A DNA stretch of 40,341 nucleotides from Nitrososphaerota archaeon. Its GTDB lineage: Archaea; Thermoproteota; Nitrososphaeria_A; Caldarchaeales; Calditenuaceae. The position numbers and the translations under genes were made by a program. Positions 13,975 to 29,473 of the stretch are shown in pieces. The first letter of the stretch is position 1; every line of letters starts with the position of its first letter. The stretch is taken from contig JAVYLC010000013.1 of the NCBI GenBank assembly GCA_038741355.1, forward strand, positions 1 to 40,341, written 5' to 3'. The notes beneath the pieces are model-generated. The model worked only from the letters and a program-made list of their open reading frames with translations, searched no databases and was not told the DNA's origin.

Positions 13975-14117
13975 AGCGGCGGAATAAACTAATCATCCCT
14001 ATCGATATATAACTTAGCCGGGCAGTTACTGTGCTTAGGAATTTTCGATGGGGCTCGGATGGGCGGCTCTTACGGAGAAGTAGTTATTTTAACTTCCGTA
14101 GGGTTTAGATTACGTGG

Positions 14118-15134
14118 ATGGCGATTATGAGTCCGAGGATAGCTATTGTAAACTCGTCAACCTTTGGGGCATATACGCGGGTGCTTGAGAGGCTCAGCAA
14201 GGTTGGAGAGGTTGTCCAAATAAATGTGCCGAGAGATATTAGTGGAAAAGAGCTAGCCTTCCGCCTCAGGGGGTTCCAGTTTGTCGTAGCCAGCACGAAT
14301 CCCAGATATGATAAAGAGTTCTTCAGTGCGAATACTGATATAGTTTTGTTGGCGCGAAACGGCATTGGTTTGGACAATATAGACGTGAAAGCTGCTACAG
14401 AGAGCGGTGTAGTTGTGACGAGGGTGCCTGGAGAGGTGGAGAGAGAGGCCGTTGCAGAGCTCGCCGTTGCCTTAATGCTTGACGCTACCCGCTCGGTCTC
14501 GGCGGCCTACATCGCCGTTAGGGAGGGGAGGTGGAATGAGAGGGGCCGGTTTATCGGGTTTGAACTCAGGGGCAAAACCGTGGGGATTATCGGTCTGGGA
14601 AACATTGGTAGGAGGGTTGCCGAGATACTGTCTAAAGGGTTCGACGCTAAGGTTCTTGCCTATGATCCTTACATCTCCGAAGACGCTGCGGCTAGCATCG
14701 GGGTTAAGCTCACAGACTTAGAGACACTCTTAAAAGAATCCGACATCGTCACGCTCCACGCCCCGCTTACAGAGGAGACGCGCCATATCATAAACGTGGA
14801 GACGATTGCGTTGATGAAGAATGGCTCTATACTGGTTAACACGGCTAGGGGGGGTCTCGTTGATACGGGCGCCTTAGTTGAGGCTCTGAGGTCCGGCAAG
14901 CTGAGATATGCTGCGCTAGATGTTGTCGAGGGAGATTATGTGAACCCGCAGCACCCACTCCTACAGTTCGAGAATGTCGTAGTTACGCCTCATATTGGCG
15001 CCTACACTTATGAGTCATTCGGCGGGATCGACGAGTGTGTCGCTGAGGCGATAGAGGCGGTTGCTAAGGGTGAGATGCCCCAACATGTAGTGAATCCTGA
15101 AGTATATCAGGAGCGTGTAAGAAAATTGGCGTAA
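14118..15134 (+). CDS. D-isomer-specific 2-hydroxyacid dehydrogenase (glyoxylate/hydroxypyruvate reductase or PGDH-like)
   Basis: GIIGLGNIGRRVA NAD motif, ..NTARGGLVD.., and the catalytic region TPHIGA. Confidence 0.85.
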   Translation: MAIMSPRIAIVNSSTFGAYTRVLERLSKVGEVVQINVPRDISGKELAFRLRGFQFVVASTNPRYDKEFFSANTDIVLLARNGIGLDNIDVKAATESGVVVTRVPGEVEREAVAELAVALMLDATRSVSAAYIAVREGRWNERGRFIGFELRGKTVGIIGLGNIGRRVAEILSKGFDAKVLAYDPYISEDAAASIGVKLTDLETLLKESDIVTLHAPLTEETRHIINVETIALMKNGSILVNTARGGLVDTGALVEALRSGKLRYAALDVVEGDYVNPQHPLLQFENVVVTPHIGAYTYESFGGIDECVAEAIEAVAKGEMPQHVVNPEVYQERVRKLA

Positions 15135-15137
15135 AAT

Positions 15138-15150
15138 CAAATTTATATGA
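15138..15150 (+). promoter_or_regulatory. TATA box (aaatttatatga) for the cupin PGI gene
   Basis: Centred about 38 nt upstream of ATG 15182. Confidence 0.4.
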
Positions 15151-15181
15151 TCGATCACCCCTAGTGTATACGTAAGCAATC

Positions 15182-15745
15182 ATGTTATTCTCCGCCAAAA
15201 TCGATTTGGCTAAACGGATAATCGAGCCGCATACAAAACACAATGTGGTGAGGCTTTCCGCTCTGAAGGAGTACTTCAGTGACCAAGTCGAGGTTGAGAG
15301 GATGATCAGCAGCCTCGGAGACATAATCATCTACGAATATTTTGAGAATATTTTTGAGGTTAAGGAGGGGAACGTGAACTTTGGGTTGACGGTATTGTAT
15401 CCCGGGAAGGTTGGGCGGGAGTATTTCCTGACCCGTGGTCATTTCCATGAGAAACGGGCTGCGGAGATCTATGTAGGCTTAGAGGGTGAGGGGGTCATCC
15501 TGATGCAGTCGGAGGATGGGAAGGTGGAGTGGCGGCCCCTCGATCCTAACACCGTCGTTTACGTGCCGCCGGGTTGGGGGCATCGAACAATAAACACGGG
15601 CAACCAGAGACTAACATTCTTCTTCGCCTATCCCGCAGATGCTAGGCATGATTATGAGATTGTTAGGAAGAAGGGCTTCGCAAAACTGGTCGTGGAGGAG
15701 AATGGACACCCAGTTGTGATAGATAACCCCCGCTATCAAACATGA
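15182..15745 (+). CDS. pgiA: Cupin-type glucose-6-phosphate isomerase (cPGI)
   Basis: Near-collinear match to the Pyrococcus furiosus cPGI core, including TVLYPGKVGREYFLTRGHFH, VVYVPPGWGHRTIN, YPADARHDY and VVIDNPRY. Confidence 0.85.
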   Translation: MLFSAKIDLAKRIIEPHTKHNVVRLSALKEYFSDQVEVERMISSLGDIIIYEYFENIFEVKEGNVNFGLTVLYPGKVGREYFLTRGHFHEKRAAEIYVGLEGEGVILMQSEDGKVEWRPLDPNTVVYVPPGWGHRTINTGNQRLTFFFAYPADARHDYEIVRKKGFAKLVVEENGHPVVIDNPRYQT

Positions 15746-15746
15746 A

Positions 15747-15775
15747 TTTTCTTTTTATGATTAATTCATCTTTTT
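15747..15775. terminator. Oligo-T tracts between convergent genes
   Basis: ttttcttttt and ctttttt lie in the 43-nt gap between cPGI and the MDR dehydrogenase. Confidence 0.3.
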
Positions 15776-15788
15776 AGTGCTGTAAAAA

Positions 15789-16823
15789 CTATGGATTGAG
15801 AATTATTCTGAGGTTTTCGAGTTTTTGTGCTTCGCTGAAGCCGTTAACACCCTCTAACAGTGGGAGGCACATGCTTATCAGTAGTTTAAGGTCTATTCTG
15901 CCTGACGCCACTATGTTTAGAGCTTTCTTGAACTCGGACGGTGTTGACATGGATGTACCGAGCACCCTTATCTGTTTATAATGTATGATGTTTGTGTCTA
16001 TCTCAACCCCTTTGACGCCGGCCGGAAGTCCAGCAAAGTAGTTGACTGCTCCCCCTGGCCTAACCACTCTTAGTGCATCCCTCTGCGCATCGGGCACGCC
16101 GACGGCCACTACAACGGCGTCTGCCCCCTCACCGTCTGTGAGCCTCTGAACCTCCTTTGCAACGTCTACTCCCTCGCTCAGCAAGATTACATGGTCGGCT
16201 CCCAGCCGCTCAGCAAATCTTGCCCTCACCTCGCTCTTCTCACACATGATTATTTTGCTGAGGCCGAGCGTCTTAGCTAATAAAAGATGCATGAGCCCGA
16301 TTGGACCCGCGCCGAAGATTGCGAGGCTGTCTCCAGCGCTTAATCCGAGCTTTAGCTGCCCCCTTAGACAGTCTGACAGGGGCTCAACTAGGGCGGCCTC
16401 CTCCATGCTAATCCAGTCCGGTATCTCTTGGACGCATCCGACGGTGAAGGCTGCGGCTGGGATGACCATATATTCCGCAAATCCACCGTCAACGTCTATG
16501 CCAATCGCATACCTCTTAGGACATAGCACATGCTCTCCTCTTAGACAATAAACACAGCTACCGCAGAATATGTTTGGGTTCAGTGTTATACGCTTGTTCA
16601 ATAGCTCCTCTCTCCCCTTACCCGCATCCACAACTACACCCGCAACTTCATGCCCGAGAGTCACAGGAACTTTTGTCCTAGAGCCATAATTGTATGCCTT
16701 CAGGTCCGTAGCACATATTCCAGCGGCTGAAACTTTCAGAACAACCTCTCCATCTCTCGGAACCGGTCTATCAATCTCTTCGAGCCGAAGATCCTTCACG
16801 CCATATAGCCTGAGCGCCTTCAT
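15789..16823 (-). CDS. Zn-dependent medium-chain dehydrogenase (sorbitol/L-threonine dehydrogenase-like)
   Basis: The start is taken at MKALRLYG (ATG 16823), which leaves 7 nt (16824-16830) between it and the upstream gene's stop at 16831. Motifs are GICATDL, GHEVAGVV, CGSCVYCLRGEHVLC and IFGAGPIG. Confidence 0.85.
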   Translation of the reverse strand: MKALRLYGVKDLRLEEIDRPVPRDGEVVLKVSAAGICATDLKAYNYGSRTKVPVTLGHEVAGVVVDAGKGREELLNKRITLNPNIFCGSCVYCLRGEHVLCPKRYAIGIDVDGGFAEYMVIPAAAFTVGCVQEIPDWISMEEAALVEPLSDCLRGQLKLGLSAGDSLAIFGAGPIGLMHLLLAKTLGLSKIIMCEKSEVRARFAERLGADHVILLSEGVDVAKEVQRLTDGEGADAVVVAVGVPDAQRDALRVVRPGGAVNYFAGLPAGVKGVEIDTNIIHYKQIRVLGTSMSTPSEFKKALNIVASGRIDLKLLISMCLPLLEGVNGFSEAQKLENLRIILNP

Positions 16824-16830
16824 TCCCCCA

Positions 16831-17862
16831 TCACGCGAGAGGTAGTGTAACGGGTCTACCAGTCTCCACTGACTTGTGCGCGGCAAGAACCGCCTCTAAA
16901 GCCTTCCTCCCATCCTCGCCGGTGACGGAAGGCTCTTTGTCATGGATGATGCAGTCAGCGAAGTGTTCGATCTCGTTTACGTATCCATCTCTAAATCGGT
17001 CTCTCCAGCTCTTGAAGCTCTCCGTGAGTACGCGCATATCTTTAGTCACGCGGGTCAAAGTTGTGCCTCTTACTTCTCCGACAGTAATTACTCCTTCTGT
17101 GCCCAAGATCTCAATCCTCGCGTCATAACCGTACCCAACGGGGCATGCTCCGTCAATGATTCCGAGACCGTTGTTCCTGAACCTAGCTAGGACAACAGCC
17201 ACATCATAAAAGTTGGGATACTTCTCTCTCAGGTCTGGGCGTATGAGGGCTGAGACTTCGCAGAAAATAGAAGAATACTCATCACTCATCATCCATCTTA
17301 GTGTGTCAAAGTCATGGCTATTAACTTCCGCCAAAAAACCAATCCCGGTCCTAGGATCCAGTGCCCAAGGAGGTGGCAAACCAGGTCCGCGACCCACCGA
17401 CTTGACCAGTATTGGTCTTCCAATCTCTCCAGAATCTATTATTTTTTTAGCTGATGTAAACTCTGGGTCAAAACGCCTCATGAACCCAATCTGAAGCTTG
17501 ACACCATAACGCTTGGTCACAGAGATCATTTTATCGGCCTCCTCGAGGGTCAGGGCCATTGGCTTCTCGCAAAAGACGTGTTTCCTCGCTTCTGCTGCCT
17601 CAAGGGTTAGAGGAGCGTGAGTAAAGGTGGGAGTCGTGATCACTACCGCCTCAAATTCAGACCTCTTTAACGCTGTCGCGAGGTCTTTGTAGGCTGCCAC
17701 TCCACCCATCTCTTCCGCGAGCTTTGTCGCAGCGGCCAACTCGCTATCAACAATTGCGGCGAGCTCTGCATTCTTTATCCTCGTCCTTATGTTTCTGGCA
17801 TGTACTGTGCCGGCCCTCCCACCACCTATCACGCAAAACTTAACAATCTTCTGTGCCGGCAT
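16831..17862 (-). CDS. Gfo/Idh/MocA family NAD(P) oxidoreductase (inositol/sugar dehydrogenase-like)
   Basis: N-terminal Rossmann motif FCVIGGGRAG and EKP motif (VFCEKPMA). ATG 17862; TTG 17874 is also possible. Confidence 0.8.
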   Translation of the reverse strand: MPAQKIVKFCVIGGGRAGTVHARNIRTRIKNAELAAIVDSELAAATKLAEEMGGVAAYKDLATALKRSEFEAVVITTPTFTHAPLTLEAAEARKHVFCEKPMALTLEEADKMISVTKRYGVKLQIGFMRRFDPEFTSAKKIIDSGEIGRPILVKSVGRGPGLPPPWALDPRTGIGFLAEVNSHDFDTLRWMMSDEYSSIFCEVSALIRPDLREKYPNFYDVAVVLARFRNNGLGIIDGACPVGYGYDARIEILGTEGVITVGEVRGTTLTRVTKDMRVLTESFKSWRDRFRDGYVNEIEHFADCIIHDKEPSVTGEDGRKALEAVLAAHKSVETGRPVTLPLA

Positions 17863-17903
17863 TTCAGGGTCCAAAAGGCGTATAGGACCTATTTACTTTT
17901 CCC

Positions 17904-18665
17904 TTAAAAATCACCCCCCACCACAATTACTTCACCCGATATGTATGAGGCCTCATCCGAGGCAAGGAATAGTATGGTTCGGGCAACCTCCTCAGGTCTG
18001 CCAAGCCTCCCGAATAGGTAGCGCTTCTTGATATCCTCCTCCGTCAACCCCCTAGCCTCCAGATACCGTCTAAAGAGAGGCGTATCGATTGCTCTTGGAG
18101 CCACAGCATTAACCCTGATGCCATAAGGTGCGAGCTCGAGTGCTAGGGCCTTTGTAAATCCAATAATACCCGCTTTTGATGCCGCATAAGCCGATGACAA
18201 CAACCCCCCGCGGATACCTTGGATCGACGAGACATTGACGATGGAGCCCCTTATGGAACTGTTAATCATGTGTGAGGCAACGTATTTGCAAAACAGATAG
18301 GTCGATTTGAGATTTACGTCCATTGTCCTCTGCCAGGCGTCGGTGGTAGTCTCAAGAAGTGTAGCAATTAAGTGAATAGCAGCATTATTCACTAAGACAT
18401 CTATTCTCCCGTATCGATTAATGACACTCTCCACACAACTCTTCACATCCTCCTCGACGGAGACATCCGCTTTTACAAATAGGGCGGCGCTCTCGCCATG
18501 CATGGCAGTGATCTTCTTCTCCAAGCGCTTTCCAGCATCTTCTTCGACATCGACCAAAACTACTCTGCACTCCTCCTCTGCAAACAGTATCGAGGTTGAG
18601 CTTCCTATTCCACTGGCCGCTCCCGTAATAATCGCAACACGGTCTTTTAATCTGCATCTACTCAA
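17904..18665 (-). CDS. Short-chain dehydrogenase/reductase (SDR)
   Basis: TGAASGIG, NNAA, and the catalytic YAASKAG. TTG start. Confidence 0.85.
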   Translation of the reverse strand: MSRCRLKDRVAIITGAASGIGSSTSILFAEEECRVVLVDVEEDAGKRLEKKITAMHGESAALFVKADVSVEEDVKSCVESVINRYGRIDVLVNNAAIHLIATLLETTTDAWQRTMDVNLKSTYLFCKYVASHMINSSIRGSIVNVSSIQGIRGGLLSSAYAASKAGIIGFTKALALELAPYGIRVNAVAPRAIDTPLFRRYLEARGLTEEDIKKRYLFGRLGRPEEVARTILFLASDEASYISGEVIVVGGDF

Positions 18666-18701
18666 GCCGACTTATCCTCAAAGAATTAGTATAGTTGCTT
18701 G

Positions 18702-19724
18702 CTATCTATCTTTATATGTTTCCTTGATGTAGGGGATAACCTTCGTTCCCATAAATACGATGAACTTTCTTTGGTCTGGGCTTGTGCTAAGAAACTCGAC
18801 CTCGTTTACACCCATCTTGATCCATTTTTCAATTCGATTAATCGCGTCCTCCTCACACGTTATTATGAACCTCTTCTGTAGAACTTGCTCCCTAGTAATT
18901 GTACTTCCCAGCCTCTCAAGTTCTCTCGGATCGTAAATATCTGAATCGAAGATGCCGGGCACCATTGTCGGGTTCCAGAACCTGCACCCTTCAATGGCTC
19001 TGTCCAAATCTTCGTCGTACGAGACCACACTATGGACTATCTTTTTAATCTTCGAAACGTCGCGCCCAGCATCCGCGGCACCCTTTTCCATGGCAGGTAA
19101 TATCTCCCCCACAAAAACCTGCTCGAATACTCGGGCCGAGACTACAACACCATCTGCGTAGTAGCCGGCCACATAGCCAGACTTCTTTCCGCTCGCAACC
19201 ATGTAGATGGGGATCTTACTCTTTGGCTTAGTGTAGAGGTTGGCCTGCCTAAGCTTATAGTGTTTGCCATCATAATCAATAAACTCGTTAGTCCAAAGAG
19301 CCTTGATTATTTCAAACGATTCACGGACGCGCATCAGCCTTTCATTGTACGGGGGCCATGGCAGCCCCAGTGGCATCTCGTTCATCGCCTCACCAGTTGC
19401 AAGACATAAAAATATGCGGCCTGGGAAGATGAAGTCTAGTGTCGCATATGCTTGAGCAATAAGGGCTGGGTGATATCGCATAATTGTAGCGCACACCGAG
19501 CCTATTCTCACTCTGCGAGTTCTCTCCGCGGCTATCCCGAGCCAGCTAAGCGCAAAGCCAGAGTGTGCATTCGTATGACTCCACGGATGGAAATGGTCAC
19601 TAGACCATATAGTGTCAAAGTTGTAACGCTCAGCCTCTACAGAGAATTCCAGAAGACTGATAGGGTCGTATTGCTCGTGTGCGCAGTAAAAACCAAACTC
19701 GATAGTCAACGGGGATAAAAACAC
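18702..19724 (-). CDS. Luciferase-like monooxygenase (LLM) class, F420-dependent oxidoreductase of the G6PDH-like family
   Basis: The N-terminus FGFYCAHEQYDPISLLEFSVEAERYNFDTIWSSDHFHPW matches the FGD-type LLM signature (..SDHFHPW). GTG start. Confidence 0.65.
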   Translation of the reverse strand: MFLSPLTIEFGFYCAHEQYDPISLLEFSVEAERYNFDTIWSSDHFHPWSHTNAHSGFALSWLGIAAERTRRVRIGSVCATIMRYHPALIAQAYATLDFIFPGRIFLCLATGEAMNEMPLGLPWPPYNERLMRVRESFEIIKALWTNEFIDYDGKHYKLRQANLYTKPKSKIPIYMVASGKKSGYVAGYYADGVVVSARVFEQVFVGEILPAMEKGAADAGRDVSKIKKIVHSVVSYDEDLDRAIEGCRFWNPTMVPGIFDSDIYDPRELERLGSTITREQVLQKRFIITCEEDAINRIEKWIKMGVNEVEFLSTSPDQRKFIVFMGTKVIPYIKETYKDR

Positions 19725-19995: not shown

Positions 19996-20763
19996 GTGAG
20001 ACTAAAGGGCAAGATAGCGATAGTCACAGGCGGTGCTAGGGGTATAGGGTTCGCAATATCTTCGAGGTTTGCGAGTGAGGGTGCGAATGTTGCCATCCTA
20101 GACATAGATTTGGAGAGGGCTGAAAAAGCAGCAGAGACGATAAAAAAGGAGGCCAAGGAGGCTGAGGTCATAGCGTTACAAGCAGACGTAAGCAACATTG
20201 ACTCTGTTAAGAGGTGTGTAGATGAAGTCGTAAAAAGGTTTCGAAGAATCGACGTATTAGTGAATAATGCGGCGATTCATCTTGGGAAGCCATTCCATGA
20301 GGAGCCGCTAGAATATTGGGAGAAGCAATTTAGAATAAACGTGTTGGGAACAGTTATACCATCCCAGCTAGTTGTGCCTCACATGATTAAGACGGGGGGA
20401 GGCTCAATCATCAATATCTCGTCGAAGGCTGCAATCACGGGCGAACCAGGACACGCCGCCTACAGTGCGCTGAAGGGTGCAGTACTCTCTCTAACCCTGG
20501 CGATGGCCGTCGACTTGGCGCCATACAACATAAGGGTCAACGCCATATGCCCCGGGCCAACAGAGACCGACCTGTTATACTCCGCCACAACTGAAGAAGA
20601 GCGGAAAAGAATGGCTGCGAGAGCCCCGTTAAAGAGGCTGGCGAAACCTGCTGATATCGCGGCAGCTGCCCTCTACCTAGCATCTGATGACTCAGTATAC
20701 GTCACTGGTCAAAAGTTCGTCGTGGACGGCGGTATGACCATCGTGGCTGTCGAGAGAGTATAG
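19996..20763 (+). CDS. Short-chain dehydrogenase/reductase (SDR)
   Basis: TGGARGIG, NNAA, YSALKGA. GTG start about 29 nt downstream of the AT box aaaaatttttaag (19961-19973). Confidence 0.85.
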   Translation: MRLKGKIAIVTGGARGIGFAISSRFASEGANVAILDIDLERAEKAAETIKKEAKEAEVIALQADVSNIDSVKRCVDEVVKRFRRIDVLVNNAAIHLGKPFHEEPLEYWEKQFRINVLGTVIPSQLVVPHMIKTGGGSIINISSKAAITGEPGHAAYSALKGAVLSLTLAMAVDLAPYNIRVNAICPGPTETDLLYSATTEEERKRMAARAPLKRLAKPADIAAAALYLASDDSVYVTGQKFVVDGGMTIVAVERV

Positions 20764-20836
20764 CAAGCACAAGACACCAACAACTAAATAACTTTAATAC
20801 GACCAGGCAACAATCTTAGTTACGGGTCCATGATTT

Positions 20837-22468
20837 ATGTCTAAAAAATTCATTATCCGCGACCCATTCGCACTATATAGGGAGGGTGTATTAAAGAGCC
20901 GCGGCTACGCAGCATGGATGAGTAACATCTACGTGGCTGCAGCTGTTTCCGATGTGTTGAAGCCATGCTTCGGCCCCAAAGGCATGTCTAAGCTGGTTAT
21001 CGACAAGTTTAGTGAGGGAGTGGTTACTAGTCATGGCGCAGAGATACTTGAAAAACTTGATCTCCACCATCCAGTAGCTAAGCTTCTCAGAGAAGCTTCC
21101 AAAACTGTTGACATAACAGTAGGAGATGGCACAAAGACAACAGTAATATTAATAGGCGAATTATTAAAAAAAGCTGCAAATCTGGCAACTAGGCAGTTAA
21201 AAATCAATACAATAATAAAAGGATACTTGATAGCATATAATACTGCATTGAAAAGTCTGCCGAAGTCTAGTAAAGCTTTGAACGGTCTCGACAGTAATTC
21301 TATAAGGGGATTCGTTTCAACAATATTAACTGGTAGAGGTCTAGGTAATGCTGATTACCTTTCAGAACTGGTGACTCAAGCTATCACGGCGGCGATCAGG
21401 AAAGATGACGGGAAGAGAGTCTTAGATAGAGACTCTGTGAAGATCGTAAAAAAAGCTGGTGGAAGTATCATGGAGAGCAGGGTGGTGAATGGTGTAATCA
21501 TCGAGAAGGGGGTTGCTCACCCGGCTATGCCGAGGGTTATAAAAAATCCGAAGATTGCGGTGCTGAATATGGCATTGAAAATCGATGAATTTAAGCATCT
21601 ACAATCGTTTAAGTACCATATCGATATTAACAAGCCTGGCAGCGTCGGACAGTTCCTTAGGGAAGAGGAGGAGCTTGTTCAGAGCATGGTTGAGAAGGTG
21701 TTATCGGTAGGCGCCAGTGTAGTCATATGTAGGAAGAAGATGGGCGATATTGCAAAGCAATTACTCGCAAAGGCGGGGGTTATGGGTATAAGCAGATTAC
21801 TTAATGAGAAAGAATTTACCAGTGTAGCGAAGATCACGGGGGCCAAGATAGTGTCCAGTGTAGAGGATATTACGGAGGAGGACTTGGGGAGAGCGGATCT
21901 CATCAGGGAAGAGAGGATAGGGACTGAGCGAGTGCTGGTCATCGAGGGATGCAATAGCGCGGGAGGTGTTACTGTTCTGTTGAGAGGTTTTTCAGAGAAT
22001 GTACTAAACGATATCGAACACGCATTCAAGGACTCGATAACCTATATTTCTTCTTCGTTGGAAGGGCCTGCCTACCTGCCCGGGGGAGGGGCTGTCGAGG
22101 AGACACTAGCCATAGCTATTAGAAGGGAAGCGTTGGGGCATGTGGGAAAAGAGCAGGAAGCCATCATGGCATATGCAGACGCTCTCGAGGCTGTACCTCG
22201 GCTTTTGGCTGAAAACTCTGGACATGACCCAGTAGAGGTCCTGTCTGAATTAAGAGCAAAACATGAAATAGGTGAGAACAATTACGGTTTTGACCCCCTC
22301 TCTGGTAAAGTGTGTGACACGCTTAAATCAGGAATAGTTGAATCCTATAGGATGAAGGAGCAGGTCTTAAAAACAACATTTGAGACAGCTGTCATGCTGT
22401 TGAGAGTTGATGAGCTGGTTGATAGACGATATGCTAAGAGGCACGAGGGTGAACTAGGCGGCGAATGA
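20837..22468 (+). CDS. Highly divergent group II chaperonin (thermosome/CCT) paralog
   Basis: Full-length collinearity with the canonical thermosome at 35626-37293, but with altered motifs (FGPKGMSKL, VTSHGAEIL, GDGTKTT, LLRGFS). It retains PGGGAVEE and FKDS. Confidence 0.8.
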   Translation: MSKKFIIRDPFALYREGVLKSRGYAAWMSNIYVAAAVSDVLKPCFGPKGMSKLVIDKFSEGVVTSHGAEILEKLDLHHPVAKLLREASKTVDITVGDGTKTTVILIGELLKKAANLATRQLKINTIIKGYLIAYNTALKSLPKSSKALNGLDSNSIRGFVSTILTGRGLGNADYLSELVTQAITAAIRKDDGKRVLDRDSVKIVKKAGGSIMESRVVNGVIIEKGVAHPAMPRVIKNPKIAVLNMALKIDEFKHLQSFKYHIDINKPGSVGQFLREEEELVQSMVEKVLSVGASVVICRKKMGDIAKQLLAKAGVMGISRLLNEKEFTSVAKITGAKIVSSVEDITEEDLGRADLIREERIGTERVLVIEGCNSAGGVTVLLRGFSENVLNDIEHAFKDSITYISSSLEGPAYLPGGGAVEETLAIAIRREALGHVGKEQEAIMAYADALEAVPRLLAENSGHDPVEVLSELRAKHEIGENNYGFDPLSGKVCDTLKSGIVESYRMKEQVLKTTFETAVMLLRVDELVDRRYAKRHEGELGGE

Positions 22469-22589: not shown

Positions 22590-22619
22590 AGGGTGGGCGG
22601 TTGGAGATGGGAAGGGTCT

Positions 22620-24167
22620 ATGCGCTCCCAGTACCTCATTGGTGTAGATATTGGGACAGCTGGGACGAAAGCCGCAGTATTTGACGTTGAGGGCAACCAG
22701 TTGGCCGTAGCGTATGAGGAGTCTAAACTTTATTATCCGAGAGTAGGCTGGGTTGAACAGGTCCCCGACGATTTCTACACCTCCACGGCTAACACTGTTA
22801 GGGAAGTCGTTAAGAAGTCTAGAATAGACCCGCGCGAAGTCGCATCAATTGCTTTCAGCGGCCAGATGGCCGGTATACTGGCGATTGATAAGGACTGGAA
22901 TCCTGTCATGCCGTATGACTCATGGCTCGATATTAGGTGTGAGAAATACATAGACTATTTGAAGGCAAACTATGAAGATTTGCTTATAGAGAGGACAGGC
23001 GCTCCGCCAACGGTCGATCATCTGCCCAAAATGATGTGGTGGAAGAATGAAAGACCTGAAACTTTCGAGAAGATAAGTAAGTTTACTGTACCTGCAGTAT
23101 ATGTAGCAGGCAGGCTCGCCGGGCTGAAGGGAGAAGACGCATTTTACGACTACACATACGTAACTTTCTCAGGGCTGTTCGACATCCATAAAAAGAACTG
23201 GTCTGAAGAGCTTGCCGAGGTTTTTGGGCTGCCACTGGATAAGATGCCCAGAGTGGTTAAGCCTTGGGAGGTTATCGGAGAGCTAACACCGGAGTCGGCG
23301 GAAAAAATGGGCCTTGTAAGAGGGATACCTATTGTGGCAGGCGCCGGGGACGGCATGGCCTGTGCGTTCGGTGCTGGATTGACACAGCCCGGGCTATGCC
23401 TAGACATAGCTGGAACCGCCTCTGCATTCTATGTCTCAACGGATAGAATAGCCCCCGACATCAAACATAAGACACTATTACATCTCAAGTCCGTCGTCCC
23501 TGAGCAGTGGTGCATCGGCGCATACATTAATGGCGGAGGGCTTTGTCTAAGGTGGTTTAGGGATGAGGTCGCCAAAGAGGAGAAGAAGGTGGCTCAACAG
23601 TTGGGGAAAGATCCTTATGAAATCTTGGATGAAGAAGCTTCTAGAGTCCCTCCTGGAAGCGAGGGAGTGTTCTTCATACCGCACCTCGGAGGCAGGGCAT
23701 ATCCCTACAATCCACGTATAAGAGGGGTTTGGATAGGATTCAGCTGGAAACACACTACAGGGCATCTCTACAGATCAATACTAGAATCCATAGCCTTCGA
23801 ATATGATCACTACCTAAAAATACTTCGAGAATTGTTAAGTAATATTGGGATTGGTGAGGTTAGGGCAATAGGTGGTGGGAGCAAGAGCCGAATTTGGTGC
23901 CAAATAAAAGCTGACATCTTAGGAATACCGTACGTCTTGCTTAATAGGGAAGAGTATGCTGTAACAGCTTTGGCAGTTATAGGTGGATATGGAGTCAAAC
24001 TACTAAAAGACTATGTGAAAACGATTAACGAATGGGTCAGGCCTATCAAGAGAATAGAGCCAAACATGGTGTTGAATGAGAGCTATAGAAAGTATTCAGA
24101 GTATTATGAAAAGTTGATTGGAGGTATTGATCATGTATTGGAAGACCATAATAGACTTGTGATATAA
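22620..24167 (+). CDS. FGGY-family carbohydrate kinase (xylulokinase/glycerol kinase-like)
   Basis: N-terminal YLIGVDIGTAGTKAAVFD, and the C-terminal FGGY domain ..IRAIGGGSKSRIWCQIKADILG.. Confidence 0.85.
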   Translation: MRSQYLIGVDIGTAGTKAAVFDVEGNQLAVAYEESKLYYPRVGWVEQVPDDFYTSTANTVREVVKKSRIDPREVASIAFSGQMAGILAIDKDWNPVMPYDSWLDIRCEKYIDYLKANYEDLLIERTGAPPTVDHLPKMMWWKNERPETFEKISKFTVPAVYVAGRLAGLKGEDAFYDYTYVTFSGLFDIHKKNWSEELAEVFGLPLDKMPRVVKPWEVIGELTPESAEKMGLVRGIPIVAGAGDGMACAFGAGLTQPGLCLDIAGTASAFYVSTDRIAPDIKHKTLLHLKSVVPEQWCIGAYINGGGLCLRWFRDEVAKEEKKVAQQLGKDPYEILDEEASRVPPGSEGVFFIPHLGGRAYPYNPRIRGVWIGFSWKHTTGHLYRSILESIAFEYDHYLKILRELLSNIGIGEVRAIGGGSKSRIWCQIKADILGIPYVLLNREEYAVTALAVIGGYGVKLLKDYVKTINEWVRPIKRIEPNMVLNESYRKYSEYYEKLIGGIDHVLEDHNRLVI

Positions 24168-24226: not shown

Positions 24227-25876
24227 ATGGAAAAGTTTATAAACAAGTTACTCCAACTAACTCCGATGTCCGAAAAGGAACATTTTAAAAAAGTCCTATC
24301 CAGGCGTGCTGCAATTGGCCAAGCAGCTAAGATCGCTGGAGTAGCTGCGGCTGGCTTGGTTGTGGGTGGTGTTGCTGGATATCTGGCAAAGCCTGAAGCA
24401 CCTCCTGCCCCGCCAAGAACTGTAACCGTAGAGAGGACTGTAGCGGCTCCAGCCCAAACTGTGACTGTTGAGAGAACAGTCACAGTTGCTGCACCGGCCG
24501 CCCCTGGACTTGCTGAGCTTAGGGCCGAGCTGGCTAAGAGGTATGCAACCGGTAAGCCTGGAGATAAATTCCTGGTTGGATATGTCACGTGGACCCTGGC
24601 ACAGGAGGCGCCTAAGTATGACTATCAGGGTGCCGACCAAGCTGCTAGGCAGCTTGAACTAGATTTCAAGGGTATAGAGATAGGGGCTGAGGCGTTAAAG
24701 GCCGTAGAGGCAACTGACTCGCTTATTGCGGCAGGTGCCAAGGGGATTGTATACTGGGCCCCCGCCATTGCCGCCATGCAGGAAATAGTGAGGCTTTGCG
24801 AAGAGAACAAGGTGTTTGCATCCACGGCTTGGACTAGGGATCCAGCTCTATTACCTGGAGATAAGGGACCACACTGGTTCCTAGAGTTCAGCACAATGTC
24901 GGACGAGATGAGCTTCCACTGTATGACGCTGCTTTACGAGAAGATGAGGAAGTACAATAAGAGCAAGGTCCTCCACGTTCAGTCCTCAAAGACAATTGCA
25001 CCAGACTCCACTGCATTAATTAATCAAGGAATCTCTATTGCATGGAGAAAGTACCCATTCATACAGAATCTCGGGCACTATTGGGGTGAGTGGGCGTATC
25101 CTGGAGGTAGAAAGGCTGGTGAGGATGCATTAGCGGTCAGAACAGACTATGAGGCAGTCTGGGGACATAATGACGACCAGGCGATGGGTACCGTCTCAGT
25201 ATTCAAGGAGAGGGGGATAGACATCGGACCATTTACGGCTGCTAGAGACGCAATAGTAGCCTATGTAGACTTAGTGATAAAGGGCGAGTTGTTCGTAACT
25301 TCACTCACTGAATTCCAGTATTTCGGCGGCAAACGCGTCGCTGCCATCTACGATGCCGTGACAGGAGCCGCATATCCCCTCAGAGACGAGATGGTACAGT
25401 CACCATGGGTTACAACGGTCCTCAACCTCTCCACACCAGGGATCAAGGAGGAGAACGAAGAACTGATTAGAAGCTCTGGCCTTGAATGGCATCCAAACTT
25501 CGTAGCAGTTGACGCGGCTAAGCTTCTAGACTTTCTGAAGATAAGTGAAGCATACCCGTCTAAGTTGTATCCATACGACTTCAGGACACTATCAGTGGGC
25601 AAGGTTAGAGAACTTGGACTGACATTTGACAGGCACGCCAAGAACTACTTAACCGCAAACGACTACTACTATGTCCCAATGATGGAGAGGATGAAGGTAA
25701 CGGACGACAGAACAAAGGGAGAAAACTTGGAGTCATTCAGGAAGCAATTCGGATTGACTATGAAATACTTCCTAGACCTGAACTGGGACACTTGGAAAGA
25801 AAACGAGGCTAAAATAAGCTCCGCACAGGGAGAAGGGCTGAAGCTGCTGCCTCGATGGGGGGCAGCGGTGGAATAA
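24227..25876 (+). CDS. Membrane-anchored ABC substrate-binding protein (PBP type I, RbsB-like) with a repeat linker and a long C-terminal extension
   Basis: N-terminal TM helix (AAKIAGVAAAGLVVGGVAGYL), a TVTVERTV x2 Pro/Ala/Thr/Val linker, then a sugar-binding-like core. It is followed by its ABC ATPase and permeases. Confidence 0.65.
   Translation: MEKFINKLLQLTPMSEKEHFKKVLSRRAAIGQAAKIAGVAAAGLVVGGVAGYLAKPEAPPAPPRTVTVERTVAAPAQTVTVERTVTVAAPAAPGLAELRAELAKRYATGKPGDKFLVGYVTWTLAQEAPKYDYQGADQAARQLELDFKGIEIGAEALKAVEATDSLIAAGAKGIVYWAPAIAAMQEIVRLCEENKVFASTAWTRDPALLPGDKGPHWFLEFSTMSDEMSFHCMTLLYEKMRKYNKSKVLHVQSSKTIAPDSTALINQGISIAWRKYPFIQNLGHYWGEWAYPGGRKAGEDALAVRTDYEAVWGHNDDQAMGTVSVFKERGIDIGPFTAARDAIVAYVDLVIKGELFVTSLTEFQYFGGKRVAAIYDAVTGAAYPLRDEMVQSPWVTTVLNLSTPGIKEENEELIRSSGLEWHPNFVAVDAAKLLDFLKISEAYPSKLYPYDFRTLSVGKVRELGLTFDRHAKNYLTANDYYYVPMMERMKVTDDRTKGENLESFRKQFGLTMKYFLDLNWDTWKENEAKISSAQGEGLKLLPRWGAAVE
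24419..24481 (+). repeat. Imperfect 39-nt-period tandem duplication encoding TVTVERTV twice (coding, linker region)
   Basis: actgtaaccgtagagaggactgta (24419-24442) versus actgtgactgttgagagaacagtc (24458-24481). Confidence 0.7.
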
Positions 25877-25950
25877 ATCTATATCCATAATTTTTTAATT
25901 ACGTGAAATATTTTTTAATTGCAATTTCCATTATTTATGTTGATAAGGAG

Positions 25951-27510
25951 ATGGCATCCGCGAGGGAGGTGCTAATTGAGGCAAAAAACATTACTAAAAC
26001 ATTCGACACAGTCGTCAGAGCTCTGGATGGAGTAAGTATAGAGGTGAGGAAGAGAGAGATCCTTAGCGTAGTGGGAGAGAATGGTGCTGGAAAATCCACT
26101 CTAATGAAGATTCTTGTAGGTATACATCAACCAGATAGCGGAGAATTATATTACCTAGGCGAGCGCATCCCATTTCCTAAGAACCCACTAGACGCCTTGA
26201 AAAGGGGTATCTCGATAGTTTACCAAGAGAGAGGTGTCATCCCGCACCTCAAGGTCTACCAATTCTTATTCCTAGGCCTTGAAGATAAGTTTACAAAGCT
26301 CGGGAGACTGCAACTAGAAAAAATTATAGGTGCGGCCAGATCCGTTTTTGACGAACTAGGCATTAAATGCGGCCTGGGAAGCTATCTTTACGAGCTGCCT
26401 CTATCCACTCAGAAGATGGTTGAGATAGCTAAGGCGATACTGAGTATCAGACTAGCTACAGGCGAGGGTGATGAGGACGTGGTCACCCCCTTGATAATAC
26501 TTGATGAGCCGACGGCCCCCCTTTCGATGGAGGAAAGAGACGAGCTGTTCGACTATCTGCTAAACCTAAAGAAGAAAAACTCTTTCATATTTGTGTCACA
26601 CATTATCCCTGAAGTAATGAAATTTAGTGACCGCATATACGTTCTACGAGATGGAAAAGTAGTGGCCCATCATGAGATATCGGCGGAAAAGGTTACTGAA
26701 GAGGAGTTGTTCAGAGAAATTGTTGGCCGCGAATCCTACTACGAGCTTTTAGCAAGATATGGTTATGGACAGGTGCAGCATGAAGAGAGGCCCTCAGTCT
26801 TGAAGGTTAGAAATCTCACAAAGAAAGGATACTACACGGGCATTTCTTTCGATATTCACCTTGGAGAGTGTGTCGGGCTGTTCGGACCTGCGGGTTGCGG
26901 TAAGAGCGAAATCGCCAAAACTCTTTATGGCGTCCTTACCTTCGATAAGGGCGAGATAATCATGGATGGTCATGAGTTGAAAGCAAAGGGTGGACCTTAC
27001 TCCAGAATCCGGAGGGGTCTCGGATATTTCTCCGGTGAGACTGGTAAGGAACTCTTCCTCTACTGGCCAGTAAGAAAGAATGTATCGATAATTAATTTTG
27101 AGAAGGTTATTAGAAAACATCTTGCGATAATTCCAGTGATAAGTCTGAGACTGGAGAAAAGCCTAGCTGAAAAAATTGTGAAGAAGCTGCGGATCAGGGC
27201 CCCCAGTGTCGATACCGAGTGCTACTCTCTAAGTGGTGGCAATAAGCAAAAGGTTTCGGTCGGTAAATGGCTTGAGAAAAGTCCGAAAGTGTTAATTCTA
27301 GAAGATCCTACTATCGGGATAGATGTAGGAGCGAGGGAAGACATATATGAAGTCCTGCTAGAAATGAAGAAGAATGGCATATCGATGCTGCTTGTAAGTG
27401 ATGATCCCAAGGAATACGCGATTCTCTGTGACAAAATACTGATGTTGAAGGCAGGCACTGTTCAGAGGGTGTGTACGAATGAGGAGTTTAGAGGTTTGAT
27501 GGGCTTATGA
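25951..27510 (+). CDS. Sugar ABC transporter ATP-binding protein, duplicated NBD (RbsA/MglA type)
   Basis: GENGAGKST / LSTQKMVEIAKAI / LILDEPT in the first NBD, and GPAGCGKSE / LSGGNKQK / LILEDPT in the second. ATG 25951 is preceded by aaggag. Confidence 0.85.
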   Translation: MASAREVLIEAKNITKTFDTVVRALDGVSIEVRKREILSVVGENGAGKSTLMKILVGIHQPDSGELYYLGERIPFPKNPLDALKRGISIVYQERGVIPHLKVYQFLFLGLEDKFTKLGRLQLEKIIGAARSVFDELGIKCGLGSYLYELPLSTQKMVEIAKAILSIRLATGEGDEDVVTPLIILDEPTAPLSMEERDELFDYLLNLKKKNSFIFVSHIIPEVMKFSDRIYVLRDGKVVAHHEISAEKVTEEELFREIVGRESYYELLARYGYGQVQHEERPSVLKVRNLTKKGYYTGISFDIHLGECVGLFGPAGCGKSEIAKTLYGVLTFDKGEIIMDGHELKAKGGPYSRIRRGLGYFSGETGKELFLYWPVRKNVSIINFEKVIRKHLAIIPVISLRLEKSLAEKIVKKLRIRAPSVDTECYSLSGGNKQKVSVGKWLEKSPKVLILEDPTIGIDVGAREDIYEVLLEMKKNGISMLLVSDDPKEYAILCDKILMLKAGTVQRVCTNEEFRGLMGL

Positions 27511-28496
27511 AGGGCGAACTTGAGAGATCACCGGTAGTAACAACCATTGCGCTGGCTTGGAGGCTTATTAGGATAAATCCTGCATTGTGGACTATTTTCA
27601 GCTTAATAGTTCTCTTCTCTATAATCGTTCCAGCAAAGTTTCTCTCAGCCAGTAATATGGTGGCTATTATGAAGAGTTTTGCTGTGACCGCGATGCTATC
27701 CGTGGGGCCGACCTTCGTAATATTGATGGGCTCTATCGATGTCTCGTATATGGGTGTGTGGATGTTTGGTGGTGCACTCGTATGGCTCCTCTATCCTTAT
27801 CTCGGTCTTGCTTCAATACTCATTTATCCCGTTTTCGGCCTGCTTGTAGGGTTGGTAAATGGTTATGTCCACGTCAGGGCTAAGATACCTTCATTCATAC
27901 TTACACTCGCTGTAACTGCTGTATTCGCATTCCTGACCACATATGTTAGAAACGTTTCTGGTGTCTTGACGCTTACTGTTCCAGCATACAATTTCCTGAG
28001 GGAGTCGCCCATATCCTACCTTCCATCACCATTCCTACTAGCACTGCCAACTATTGCTTTGGCGATATTCTTTATGTTCTTCACTAAAGTTGGGACCTAT
28101 CTCTGCGCCATAGGGTCAAATGAGGAGGGTGCCAGCCTGGCAGGAATCGATGTCAAAAAGTACAAGATAATTGCCTTCATGCTTAGCGGGTTCTTAACGG
28201 GGCTAGGCTCGATCGCGATCTTCGTCCACCTTGGAAACCAGACGAGGGTAGATTTTGACCCGAGCGAGCTGATAAGGGGTTTGGCCGCTATAGTTCTTGG
28301 AGGAACCCCGCTAGCTGGCGGCATGGGCGGTCCACATAGAACACTGATGGGCGCGTTAGTGTATGTGTTGATATTTAATGGGCTGTTCCTTCTTCCCGGT
28401 GTGGATCCGAACCACCTCAAACTCTATATAGGTACACTCTTGATGGCCGCTGTTGCCATCGCGTCAAAAGCCCTTAAAGGCGCCTTAATCGCCTAG
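27507..28496 (+). CDS. Sugar ABC transporter permease (RbsC/AraH family)
   Basis: Polytopic protein with GSIDVSY.. and ..GGTPLAGGMGG motifs typical of the family. 4-nt overlap with the ATPase gene. Confidence 0.8.
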   Translation: MKGELERSPVVTTIALAWRLIRINPALWTIFSLIVLFSIIVPAKFLSASNMVAIMKSFAVTAMLSVGPTFVILMGSIDVSYMGVWMFGGALVWLLYPYLGLASILIYPVFGLLVGLVNGYVHVRAKIPSFILTLAVTAVFAFLTTYVRNVSGVLTLTVPAYNFLRESPISYLPSPFLLALPTIALAIFFMFFTKVGTYLCAIGSNEEGASLAGIDVKKYKIIAFMLSGFLTGLGSIAIFVHLGNQTRVDFDPSELIRGLAAIVLGGTPLAGGMGGPHRTLMGALVYVLIFNGLFLLPGVDPNHLKLYIGTLLMAAVAIASKALKGALIA

Positions 28497-28510
28497 CATG
28501 AGGTGACAGT

Positions 28511-29473
28511 ATGCGTCAAACAATCGTCCAAAGAGAGTGGCTGTATAGAAATCTTAACACGATAATTCCAATCTCCGGGCTATTGTTATTGATTGTTCTT
28601 TTGCGGATTGCTAATCCATTCTTCCTAACGAGCTGGGACAGCGTCATCACCTTGATCTACGGCATGTCATTTTTCCTAATAGCGGCTTGTGGACTTACGC
28701 TAGTCATTCTCATGGGCTCGTTTGATTTTTCCGTTCCCAGCGTTCTAAAGCTATCCGCAATGATATTCGCCGTCCTATACCCTTTTATCGGCTTCCTATC
28801 CATACCATCGGCACTAGGCGTCGCCTTAGTTTTTGGATACGTGAATGGCTTGTTACTGGCGAAGTTTAGGATCCCCTCTTTCATGGCCACTTTAGCCACA
28901 TCTATGGTGGCTGAGGGGTTGGCTCAGATAATATCTGGAGGATATACAAGGATGATAACTGACCCGGCATTCAGGGCCATCTCAACCTCAATGATGTTTG
29001 GCCTACCGTCGATATTTTACTGGGGAGCGGCTTTATGGATTGTCGCCGTCCTCATCACCATGGTTACACCTTTTGGAAGGGCTATCTACGCGATTGGCGG
29101 AAACCTTGTAGGTGCGAATCTGGCTGGGATAAACGTCTCAAGGGTGAGGATTCTGGTCTTCATGATTTGTGCACTGTTCGCGGGTCTTGCGGGTATCTTA
29201 TATGCCTCTCAGATCCAGGGAGCGCATATGCAGGTTGGTGTATTGGACACGATACCCCTCTTTGCAAGCGTGGTCGTCGGTGGGACAGCGCTAACGGGAG
29301 GTGTCGGTGGTGTGCATAGGACTTTGCTGGGGGTGTTGATTATCAGGTGGCTTGACTCCGGTCTAAGCATGCTCGCAATAGATCTAAACATTAGGATGAT
29401 AATCTTCGGCGTAATCGCGATTGTGATGGCCATATTGACGATAGATAGAAGGCGGATTAAGATAATGAAGTAG
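28511..29473 (+). CDS. Sugar ABC transporter permease (RbsC/AraH family), second copy
   Basis: GSFDFSV.. and ..GGTALTGGVGG motifs. Paralogous to the preceding gene. Confidence 0.8.
   Translation: MRQTIVQREWLYRNLNTIIPISGLLLLIVLLRIANPFFLTSWDSVITLIYGMSFFLIAACGLTLVILMGSFDFSVPSVLKLSAMIFAVLYPFIGFLSIPSALGVALVFGYVNGLLLAKFRIPSFMATLATSMVAEGLAQIISGGYTRMITDPAFRAISTSMMFGLPSIFYWGAALWIVAVLITMVTPFGRAIYAIGGNLVGANLAGINVSRVRILVFMICALFAGLAGILYASQIQGAHMQVGVLDTIPLFASVVVGGTALTGGVGGVHRTLLGVLIIRWLDSGLSMLAIDLNIRMIIFGVIAIVMAILTIDRRRIKIMK

Follow-up and report, generated by a model that had tools for sequence, protein, structure and literature searches.

A divergent group II chaperonin gene maintained beside an FGGY-family sugar kinase gene in Caldarchaeales and some Bathyarchaeia

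The thermosomes of archaea are viewed as folding machines for general housekeeping and heat shock, and their paralogs are usually read as interchangeable or temperature-tuned subunits. Does this description fit a thermosome paralog encoded in the middle of a sugar utilization cluster? The question is raised by a 40,341-nt stretch of DNA from a Nitrososphaerota archaeon (Caldarchaeales, Calditenuaceae; assembly GCA_038741355.1, contig JAVYLC010000013.1, positions 1 to 40,341 of the forward strand), which we analyzed as a whole and refer to as the window. It carries two group II chaperonin genes. The first, hereafter the canonical copy, encodes a thermosome subunit with a Lys/Glu-rich tail and is flanked by histidine-biosynthesis genes (his operon) and a DUF763 gene, a housekeeping setting. 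The second, which we named CPNdiv, is divergent and lies among genes for sugar uptake and catabolism. An initial annotation, made from the sequence alone, had noticed this gene and proposed that it could encode a client-specific or a regulatory, weakly hydrolyzing subunit. Here, we report that CPNdiv belongs to a separate clade of group II paralogs, passed on vertically in Caldarchaeales and some Bathyarchaeia, that it evolves under purifying selection, and that it has remained next to a single lineage of FGGY-family sugar kinase genes. To the reading that CPNdiv is a chaperonin dedicated to this pathway and restricted in its clients, which is drawn from sequence comparisons, we attach about as much credence as doubt.

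As the initial annotation had claimed, CPNdiv is a full-length second thermosome paralog. Its product is collinear with that of the canonical copy, with 36% identity across 520 residues, and matches the Pfam family PF00118 (Cpn60_TCP1) over residues 37–529 of 543 with 474.3 bits (cutoff 34.3), against 655 bits for the canonical copy. On the three thermosome models (TIGR02339, NF041082, and NF041083), the canonical copy scores 783–819 bits. CPNdiv passes the thermosome_alpha model NF041082 (480.6, cutoff 450; canonical copy 805) and the β model NF041083 (476.1, cutoff 400) only marginally and stays under the cutoff of the thermosome subfamily model TIGR02339 (476.9, cutoff 671.1). This combination of marginal α/β equivalog passes with a TIGR02339 failure accounts for the public labels of the members of its clade, “thermosome subunit alpha/beta,” “GroEL,” or “hypothetical,” the first two of which mask the distinctness of the clade. 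The scores on the eight CCT models (TIGR02340–02347) are all under cutoff, the highest being that of CCT gamma (350.4 vs. 553.45), and membership in the CCT family is therefore ruled out. The motifs quoted in the initial annotation, whether altered (KPCFGPKGMSKL, VTSHGAEIL, VGDGTKTT, and LLRGFS) or kept (PGGGAVEE with its GGGA loop, and FKDS with its Asp), are all present in CPNdiv, and the acidic/Lys-rich C-terminal tail of the canonical copy is indeed replaced, by DRRYAKRHEGELGGE. An AlphaFold2 model computed from the clade alignment (pLDDT 86.6, pTM 0.82) predicts equatorial, intermediate, and apical domains and a built-in helical-protrusion lid, the latter with a 4-residue insertion. A Foldseek search with this model gave TM-scores of 0.89–0.94 to the Thermococcus KS-1 chaperonin, and comparison with closed-state thermosomes (T. 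KS-1 and T. acidophilum), Mm-cpn, and CCT subunits gave values of 0.85–0.95. The Pfam match places CPNdiv in the Cpn60/TCP-1 superfamily, and the predicted structure gives it a group II architecture.

A search of a 5.8-billion-protein collection with the CPNdiv product returned a discrete set of sequences (P0001–P0057) with 44–100% identity and 462–1168 bits. After P0057, the scores fall sharply to canonical thermosomes with at most 40% identity and less than 400 bits. The hosts of this clade, which comprises at least 56 sequences, are Aigarchaeota/Caldarchaeales, Caldarchaeum, “Thaumarchaeota,” and metagenome-assembled genomes of Bathyarchaeia. It is rare: after clustering at 50%, a collection of 1.84 billion proteins contains no more than a few representatives of it. 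Clade counts given below refer to 56 full-length members, compared with 65 canonical sequences, all trees were built by neighbor joining, and bootstrap values are out of 100 replicates. According to this phylogeny, the 56 members group together in every one of the 100 replicates and are separated from the 65 canonical sequences by a long stem. When the tree was rooted on bacterial thermosome-like genes and named thermosomes of TACK, Asgard, and Euryarchaeota were included, the clade was again monophyletic (99/100) and branched as the sister group of every canonical thermosome sampled, with 73/100 for the monophyly of the latter. As the clade evolves fast and the outgroup is distant, this sister placement is possibly due to long-branch attraction. 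The outgroup genes, found in the Thermoactinomycetaceae Polycladospora coralii (L018, 10001–11479) and Marininema mesophilum (L019, 10001–11503), are ~23–27% identical to the chaperonins of the window and probably belong to the “archaeal-like” group III. Outside the window, we also observed two proteins (P0121, 1057 aa; P0122, 1047 aa) in each of which two whole thermosome-like units follow one another in a tandem fusion, with a GDG(T/S/A)K P-loop in both halves; they could be natural “double chaperonin” fusions or artefacts of gene calling or assembly.

We then compared gene order at 24 CPNdiv loci and in the window. The sequences come from metagenome-assembled genomes, single-cell genomes, or metagenome contigs; synteny was judged within single contigs, so that binning has no effect on it, and the loci were searched for by peptide patterns, which missed some relatives. 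Nearly all CPNdiv loci share a gene set consisting of a CUT2-type ABC importer, an FGGY kinase, Zn-dependent alcohol dehydrogenases (Zn-ADHs), a GFO/IDH/MocA protein, SDRs, and a “GPI-like” cupin. The association with a CUT2 transporter holds even in P0123, the most distant member. Among the FGGY kinases, those that we named group 1 are archaeal and 71–100% identical to the kinase of the window. In 20 out of 20 loci encoding a group 1 kinase, the next gene upstream is CPNdiv, in the same orientation, at a distance of 43–167 nt according to tblastn coordinates (151 nt in the window). The called genes are separated by 39 nt in L185, whereas those of L022 and L023 share 11 nt. A fragment at a contig end (L216) shows the same order. 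Thus, orthologs do keep the sugar-gene neighborhood, a point that the initial annotation had proposed to check. Around the constant pair, the genes for the ABC transporter, an aldehyde:ferredoxin oxidoreductase (AOR), an aldehyde dehydrogenase, and SDRs shift or vanish. The ABC importer, whose orthologs in other loci are 59–96% identical, is encoded downstream of the pair in the window and in L001, L002, L007, and L185, and divergently upstream in L003, L011–L017, and L021. The AOR, a 620-aa tungsten-type enzyme (AFOR_N/AFOR_C; 13409–15271 in L011), is encoded between the kinase and the cupin genes in most relatives. Orthologs were found in L003, L005, L006, L009, L010, L012–L017, and L021, and none in the window, L001, L002, L007, or L185; in L022 and L023, an aldehyde dehydrogenase gene takes its place. 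The FGGY and CPNdiv trees are congruent at the level of the major groups, which indicates that the pair was inherited as a unit. A second archaeal lineage of FGGY kinases, group 2 (63–66% identical; L201–L205), is encoded in clusters that include GFO/MocA, Zn-ADH, SDR, and LLM genes. Such a cluster, devoid of a chaperonin gene, coexists with the chaperonin-linked one in W. gerlachensis (L205) and SKYB129 (L201), and the three others (L202–L204) are from Bathyarchaeota. In L203, the transporter and kinase genes have the divergent layout of some group 1 loci, with a 530-nt gap at the CPNdiv site.

The two chaperonins of the window evolve at very different rates. Relative to the two closest genomes, the ratio of nonsynonymous to synonymous substitution rates (dN/dS) is 0.11 for CPNdiv and 0.014 for the canonical copy, an ~8-fold difference, and ranges from 0.024 to 0.13 for the neighboring enzymes. 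Over nine paired genomes, the CPNdiv proteins have a mean pairwise identity of 0.57 and the canonical ones of 0.81. Identity to the proteins of the window is, for the canonical copy and CPNdiv, respectively, 98% and 82% in JBEPYO01, 78% and 62% in G. dongiae, 76% and 62% in SKYB24, 76% and 56% in KUA_Bin06, 75% and 57% in G. arthurdayi, 73% and 45% in W. sinensis, 73% and 47% in CALJVH, and 72% and 49% in CAZDPL. CPNdiv is freed from the very strong constraint exerted on the housekeeping thermosome, yet it is under purifying selection. Its best conserved 20-residue blocks are the lid tip (residues 241–260, mean pairwise identity 0.78) and the C-terminal strand and tail (residues 521–540, 0.77); over the first 20 residues (0.70), conservation equals that of the canonical copy. 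Constraint has shifted to the parts predicted to contact neighboring subunits in the ring and to close the chamber, as would be expected of a working machine with fewer clients. The initial annotation had also described CPNdiv as AT-richer than the canonical copy. This is correct (GC 0.453 vs. 0.537; GC at third codon positions, GC3, 0.460 vs. 0.649), but it is not specific to the gene: GC3 is comparably low in the FGGY (0.488) and ABC ATPase (0.476) genes and is thus a property of the whole cluster, unlike the GC3 of the highly expressed canonical copy. A foreign origin of CPNdiv in particular, deduced from its low GC, was ruled out since the neighboring sugar genes are similar and the cluster follows the species divergence of the canonical thermosome. 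The dN/dS values, the neighbor-like codon composition, and the TIGR02339 score under cutoff together set CPNdiv apart from an ordinary third housekeeping subunit, the alternative that the initial annotation had itself raised.

The clade is also recognizable by four changes that the initial annotation had not noticed: a Lys to Arg change in the nucleotide-sensing loop, the loss of the Asp of the GMDKM motif, a lid motif with its insertion, and conserved N- and C-termini (table 1). The N-terminal signature is YIIRDPxxLHREGV and the consensus of the lid KIDEF(R/K)HLQPYKY. At the C-terminus, the consensus is DRRYAKRHxGELGG(Q/E), in which D525, D529, and R531 are invariant. The protein of the window bears all of these features, with S257 instead of the consensus Pro. 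Q299R is a further clade signature. In the clade, 32 positions that are invariant in canonical sequences are relaxed. The stem loop motif GMDKM has become GMSKL, the Asp position being occupied by Ser in 35 of the 56 members, Tyr in nine, Phe in three, Lys in three, and other residues in the remainder. At the Asp of the T-N-D-G motif, 42 members retain Asp and 14 have His, which is specific to the subclade of the window. The P-loop position 100, Lys throughout the clade, is Thr in 59 and Lys in six of the 65 canonical sequences; T99 and T101 are each found in 50/56 clade sequences, and the Mg-binding D97 is invariant, as is the GGGA loop (G417-G418-A419). The nucleotide-sensing loop has its full length (one-residue gap only), and its Lys position is Lys in 64/65 and Arg in 1/65 canonical sequences. 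In the structure of a group III chaperonin, three residues of GDGTTT, namely its Asp, its first Thr, and its third Thr, bind the β and γ phosphates, and the sensing-loop Arg155, equivalent to T. KS-1 Lys165, contacts the γ-phosphate; the R155K mutant retains ATPase activity, which shows that a positive charge at this position is enough (PMC5635000). Lys161 of Mm-cpn has the same γ-phosphate sensing role (PMC5220055).

These data suggest that the ATP site is compatible with activity, as D97, D399, and the GGGA loop are the same throughout the clade, most of its members retain T99 and T101, and the sensing residue is still positively charged. The nucleotide pocket of CPNdiv is altered yet probably functional. 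The idea that GDGTKT marks a dead ATP site was rejected because ADGTKT is found in the solved β subunit of the Saccharolobus solfataricus thermosome (PDB 4XCD, 4XCG_B, and 6XHI). The initial description of a remodeled, weakly hydrolyzing pocket was accordingly too strong: Lys100 has counterparts in this β subunit and in canonical sequences, the phosphate-binding Thr residues are mostly kept, the His of TSHGA is confined to one subclade, and the Mg-binding Asp, the GroEL D398 equivalent, and the GGGA loop do not vary. Similarly, RGFS in place of HGGT is not a meaningful departure. Arg is the consensus residue (63/65 canonical sequences, motif I-R-G-G-T), and it is the canonical copy of the window that is unusual, with His in LIHGGT. 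Two changes are genuine: the GMDKM Asp is missing from the whole clade, and the Asp of T-N-D-G has given way to His in 14 members.

Table 1. Positions of CPNdiv, its sequence signatures, and the surrounding genes in the window
Feature	Position	Strand	Remarks
CPNdiv, divergent group II chaperonin paralog	20837..22468	+	Intact open reading frame, 543 aa + stop codon
TATA-like box AACTTTAATA	20790..20799	+	~40 nt upstream of CPNdiv ATG
Ser51 codon, GMDKM Asp position	20987..20989	+	Asp: clade 0/56, canonical 63/65
His66 codon, T-N-D-G Asp position (GroEL D52, T. KS-1 D64 equivalent)	21032..21034	+	Canonical Asp 65/65
P-loop motif G96-D-G-T-K100-T	21122..21139	+	Lys100 in 56/56 clade members
Arg167 codon, nucleotide-sensing-loop Lys position (T. 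KS-1 K165, Mm-cpn K161)	21335..21337	+	Clade: Arg 53/56, Lys 3/56
Lid-tip motif ALKIDEFKHLQSFKYHI	21572..21622	+	4-residue insertion vs. canonical thermosomes
Asp399 codon, catalytic Asp (GroEL D398, Mm-cpn D386 equivalent)	22031..22033	+	56/56 clade, 65/65 canonical
Clade-specific C-terminal strand and tail DELVDRRYAKRHEGELGGE	22406..22465	+	Replaces long charged tail
SDR oxidoreductase, glucose-1-dehydrogenase-like, upstream of CPNdiv	19996..20763	+	Pfam adh_short_C2, NCBIfam NF005559
FGGY-family sugar kinase (group 1), downstream of CPNdiv	22620..24167	+	FGGY_N + FGGY_C
CUT2-type sugar ABC importer, whole	24227..29473	+	Pfam/NCBIfam family matches
ABC binding protein (large)	24227–25876	+	
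ABC tandem ATPase, sugar-type	25903–27510	+	
Two ABC permeases	27507–28496, 28511–29473	+	
Zn-ADH	12952–13974	-	Pfam/NCBIfam
2-Hydroxyacid dehydrogenase	14118–15134	+	Pfam/NCBIfam
Cupin, GPI-like	15182–15745	+	Pfam/NCBIfam
Zn-ADH (second)	15789–16886	-	Pfam/NCBIfam
GFO/IDH/MocA	16831–17874	-	Pfam/NCBIfam
SDR (second)	17904–18665	-	Pfam/NCBIfam
F420-type LLM oxidoreductase	18702–19724	-	Pfam/NCBIfam
Canonical thermosome subunit, comparator outside the cluster	35626..37293	+	555 aa, NCBIfam α/β 805–818 bits

The string of genes that the initial annotation had assigned to sugar uptake and catabolism (SDR, CPNdiv, FGGY kinase, binding protein, ATPase, and two permeases) was confirmed by Pfam and NCBIfam matches. 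Successive gaps along it are of 73, 124–151, 59, 26, −4 (an overlap), and 14 nt. The SDR gene holds the same position in L001, L002, L003, L007, L016, and L185. The FGGY kinase of the window scores under the XylB and GntK cutoffs. We favor ATG 22620 as its start over GTG 22593, the start of the mechanically called open reading frame, from the conserved N-terminus MxSQYFIGVDIGT. Homologs of the accessory catabolic genes located on the other side of CPNdiv (12952..19724) recur near CPNdiv in other loci and in bacterial FGGY operons. The TATA-like box upstream of CPNdiv is probably its own promoter: a (T)TTAATAA-like element is located at an equal distance upstream of its orthologs in L001, L002, L003, L016, L007, L006, L004, and L005. 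An A/T-rich, TATA-like stretch (~22577–22590) also precedes the ATG of the FGGY gene, whose transcript may be leaderless or short-leadered. An Rfam scan of the window detected one tRNA only and no match in the CPNdiv-FGGY spacer. This tRNA gene (4460–4565, plus strand; RF00005, 44.4 bits) is 106 nt long for a 71-position model and probably contains an intron. It is preceded by a gene for a ThiF-rhodanese fusion (E1-like, MoeB/UBA4-type; 3233–4420, plus strand) and followed by a HEPN-domain gene (4645–5028) and an overlapping small open reading frame (5021–5353), which may form a HEPN/nucleotidyltransferase toxin-antitoxin pair (4645–5353, plus strand). Next to the last permease gene lies a gene for an AmmeMemoRadiSam-system radical SAM enzyme (29490–30569, minus strand; TIGR04337, 326.6 bits), syntenic in L001 and L002. 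In another locus, L020, a 570-aa NosD/β-helix (pectinesterase-like) protein is encoded between the ABC transporter and the chaperonin genes (5545–7257), a hint of a polysaccharide-derived substrate.

How may this gene organization be explained? Adjacency and orientation of CPNdiv and the FGGY gene persist while the canonical thermosomes of the same genomes have diverged to 72–78% identity to that of the window. This persistence, like the occasional gene overlap and the neighbor-like codon usage, argues for a functional coupling. Combined with a subunit that is intact, lid-bearing, apparently competent at its ATP site, and under purifying selection, such a coupling leads to the pathway-dedicated chaperonin evoked above. 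CPNdiv would be produced along with a cluster for the uptake and oxidation of a sugar or polyol, and its ATP-driven lid closure would fold or assemble one or a few of the proteins encoded there, the adjacent kinase, of the ASKHA fold, being the prime candidate client. CPNdiv would assemble as its own ring, apart from the canonical subunits, because its N-terminal strand, stem loop, and C-terminal strand have been remodeled jointly. In its most specific form, that of a homo-oligomeric ATP-driven ring dedicated to a single client class, the FGGY kinase, this proposal remains doubtful in our opinion. As a variant, the sugar module may be of bacterial origin, with enzymes that fold with GroEL, and a duplicate of the thermosome may have been recruited as their folder in a thermophile lacking GroEL.

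Several observations weigh against a dedicated chaperonin. Group 2 FGGY genes have no adjacent CPNdiv, and neither does the FGGY gene of L199, which branches beside group 1. In L020, which carries the most divergent type of CPNdiv (P0054), a group 2-like kinase gene lies 3.9 kb away on the opposite strand, and in L008 and L184, CPNdiv is present with no FGGY gene on the contig. Bacterial FGGY homologs (40–49% identical; Chloroflexota, Bacillota, Actinomycetota, Acidobacteriota, and Spirochaetota) are encoded in operons with genes for GFO, Zn-ADH, cupin, 2-hydroxyacid dehydrogenase, and, in some of them, an ABC transporter, but never with a chaperonin. These unlinked relatives indicate that the kinase family has no intrinsic need for CPNdiv. 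No indel or fixed residue distinguishes group 1 from the other FGGY kinases. By inspection, we did not recognize any convincing operator or promoter motif shared among the promoters of the cluster of the window, and the TATA-like boxes in front of both CPNdiv and the FGGY gene permit separate transcription. Moreover, His66 in the subclade of the window could reduce the ATPase activity, and so could the absence of the GMDKM Asp throughout the clade. The chaperonin-free bacterial operons also indicate that CPNdiv is an archaeal addition to an older catabolic module. It joined this module once and then stayed with one kinase lineage amid the reshuffling of the other genes.

Other explanations account for part of these data. 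In Sulfolobus, the α/β/γ composition of the thermosome is regulated by temperature. By analogy, CPNdiv could be an extra subunit that the general thermosome takes up conditionally. Induced along with sugar catabolism, it would enter hetero-oligomeric rings with the canonical subunit and modify the properties of the thermosome, with no dedicated client. A full-length protein with an intact ATP-site core is consistent with this role, as is the P-loop Lys common to CPNdiv and the Sulfolobus β subunit, and multi-paralog thermosomes are common, with five group II genes in M. acetivorans (PMC5220055). However, all three elements of the inter-subunit β-sheet (N-terminal strand, stem loop GMDKM to GMSKL, and C-terminal strand) are remodeled throughout the clade, which would disfavor mixing with canonical subunits. 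In addition, the GC3 of CPNdiv is far under that of the canonical copy, and the strict adjacency to one kinase gene is left unexplained; we consider a conditional subunit unlikely. The fixed pair, and a transporter association reaching the most distant member, would fit a non-folding role, in which the kinase or transporter has recruited the chaperonin scaffold as an ATP-dependent partner for regulation, sensing, or structure, for example in a stable kinase-chaperonin complex or as a cage sequestering an enzyme or reactive intermediates. The many relaxed canonical invariants point in this direction, together with a pocket that gains positive charge (K100 and R167) and, in the subclade of the window, loses two acidic residues (S51 and H66). 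Conservation is nevertheless highest at the catalytic Asp, at the lid tip, and in the elements of assembly, in agreement with a working open-close machine, and we know of no precedent for such a co-option in prokaryotic group II chaperonins. We therefore judge a non-folding role rather improbable.

Alternatively, there might be no functional link at all, CPNdiv being an ordinary fast-evolving spare paralog and its adjacency to the kinase gene a vertically inherited frozen accident. All carriers belong to related lineages of Thermoproteota, and simple co-inheritance predicts the congruence of the CPNdiv and FGGY trees; the separate promoter-like elements and the sister clusters without CPNdiv are also as expected. 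Such an accident would, however, have left the order and orientation of the two genes untouched in 20/20 loci, over a divergence that has brought canonical thermosomes down to 72–78% identity to that of the window, while every other gene of the cluster moved, was inverted, or was lost. Considering also the overlap of the two genes in L022 and L023 and the maintained purifying selection, we hold this to be very unlikely. The raised evolutionary rate and the loss of several family invariants might finally evoke a decaying copy, a pseudogene in the making. This can be practically dismissed, and we ruled it out on the basis of the dN/dS of 0.11 and of an open reading frame intact in more than 56 sequences across the clade, to which the strongly conserved clade motifs and the confident AlphaFold2 model may be added. 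Of all these explanations, the pathway-dedicated chaperonin is the one that we favor.

In the searchable literature, we found neither a report of this clade nor one that links an archaeal thermosome paralog with a sugar or metabolic gene cluster, and the novelty suspected in the initial annotation stands to this extent. The Wolframiiraptor genome paper discusses the xylulose-kinase genes of these organisms without mention of the chaperonin, and a pangenome study of Caldarchaeales lists a “chaperonin GroEL” among the clusters unique to one hot-spring metagenome-assembled genome, without comment (PMC10547907). If the pathway-dedicated reading is true, CPNdiv would provide, outside eukaryotes, a first sign that group II chaperonins can be reserved for one pathway or client, through a link that has withstood divergence at the level of orders to classes. 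In the most specific form of this reading, with the FGGY kinase as the single client class, archaea would have in CPNdiv their first natural “private” group II chaperonin, a prokaryotic parallel to the CCT-actin couple. With one chaperonin gene and one candidate client, CPNdiv would also offer a tractable model for substrate specificity and for subunit specialization such as that of the eight-subunit CCT. In practice, heterologous expression of the enzymes of the sugar cluster from uncultured thermophiles, for example Wolframiiraptor, may need CPNdiv.

Compared with known systems, CPNdiv is close in architecture to the canonical archaeal thermosomes, such as the α subunit of Thermococcus KS-1 (PDB 1Q2V, 1Q3R, and 1Q3S) and the α/β thermosome of T. 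acidophilum (1A6D). They share the predicted three-domain, lid-bearing fold (TM-scores of 0.87–0.95), are collinear at 35–38% identity, and have in common the Mg-binding Asp, the catalytic Asp, the GGGA loop, and a full-length sensing loop. CPNdiv differs from them by its separate clade on a long stem, its catabolic instead of housekeeping context, and its ~8-fold higher dN/dS, as well as by GDGT-K-T, the sensing-loop Lys to Arg change, the lost Asp of GMDKM, the lid insertion and motif, and its clade-specific termini. The β (and γ) subunits of Sulfolobus and Saccharolobus are, like CPNdiv, paralogous subunits of crenarchaeal type, and the β subunit has Lys at the same P-loop position. Unlike CPNdiv, it retains GMDKM, TNDG, and canonical termini. 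The Sulfolobus β subunit is a general, temperature-regulated housekeeping subunit, for which we know of no conserved link with a sugar kinase. Likewise, we know of no reported metabolic gene linkage for the supernumerary chaperonin genes of Methanosarcina acetivorans. The five group II genes of this species (Maeder et al. 2005, cited in PMC5220055) represent another case of extra divergent paralogs in one archaeal genome, in a different phylum.

Group III chaperonins, exemplified by Ch-CPN of Carboxydothermus, encoded in the dnaK operon, resemble CPNdiv in being a monophyletic divergent clade with a conserved operon context and an Arg facing the γ-phosphate, but their sensing loop is six residues shorter and their lid carries deletions (PMC5635000). 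In contrast, CPNdiv retains the whole loop, bears an insertion in the lid, is archaeal, is only ~23% identical to the bacterial thermosome-like genes of L018 and L019, and has a sugar kinase as its partner instead of DnaK/DnaJ. Sharing only the sensing Arg with group III, it was excluded from this group. The hallmark client of CCT, actin, shares the ASKHA superfold with FGGY kinases. The subunits of CCT, as well as the chaperonin-like proteins BBS6, BBS10, and BBS12 of animals (PMC2846930), are functionally diverged group II paralogs, as is CPNdiv. No CCT subunit is orthologous to CPNdiv, which probably functions outside any eight-membered hetero-oligomer. The specialized GroEL paralogs of bacteria, to which we know of no archaeal group II counterpart, differ from CPNdiv in belonging to group I and in depending on GroES. 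These paralogs, such as the rhizobial groESL genes of the nif/nod regulons and mycobacterial GroEL1, are duplicated, faster-evolving chaperonins co-regulated with, or dedicated to, a pathway or a client, as we propose for CPNdiv.

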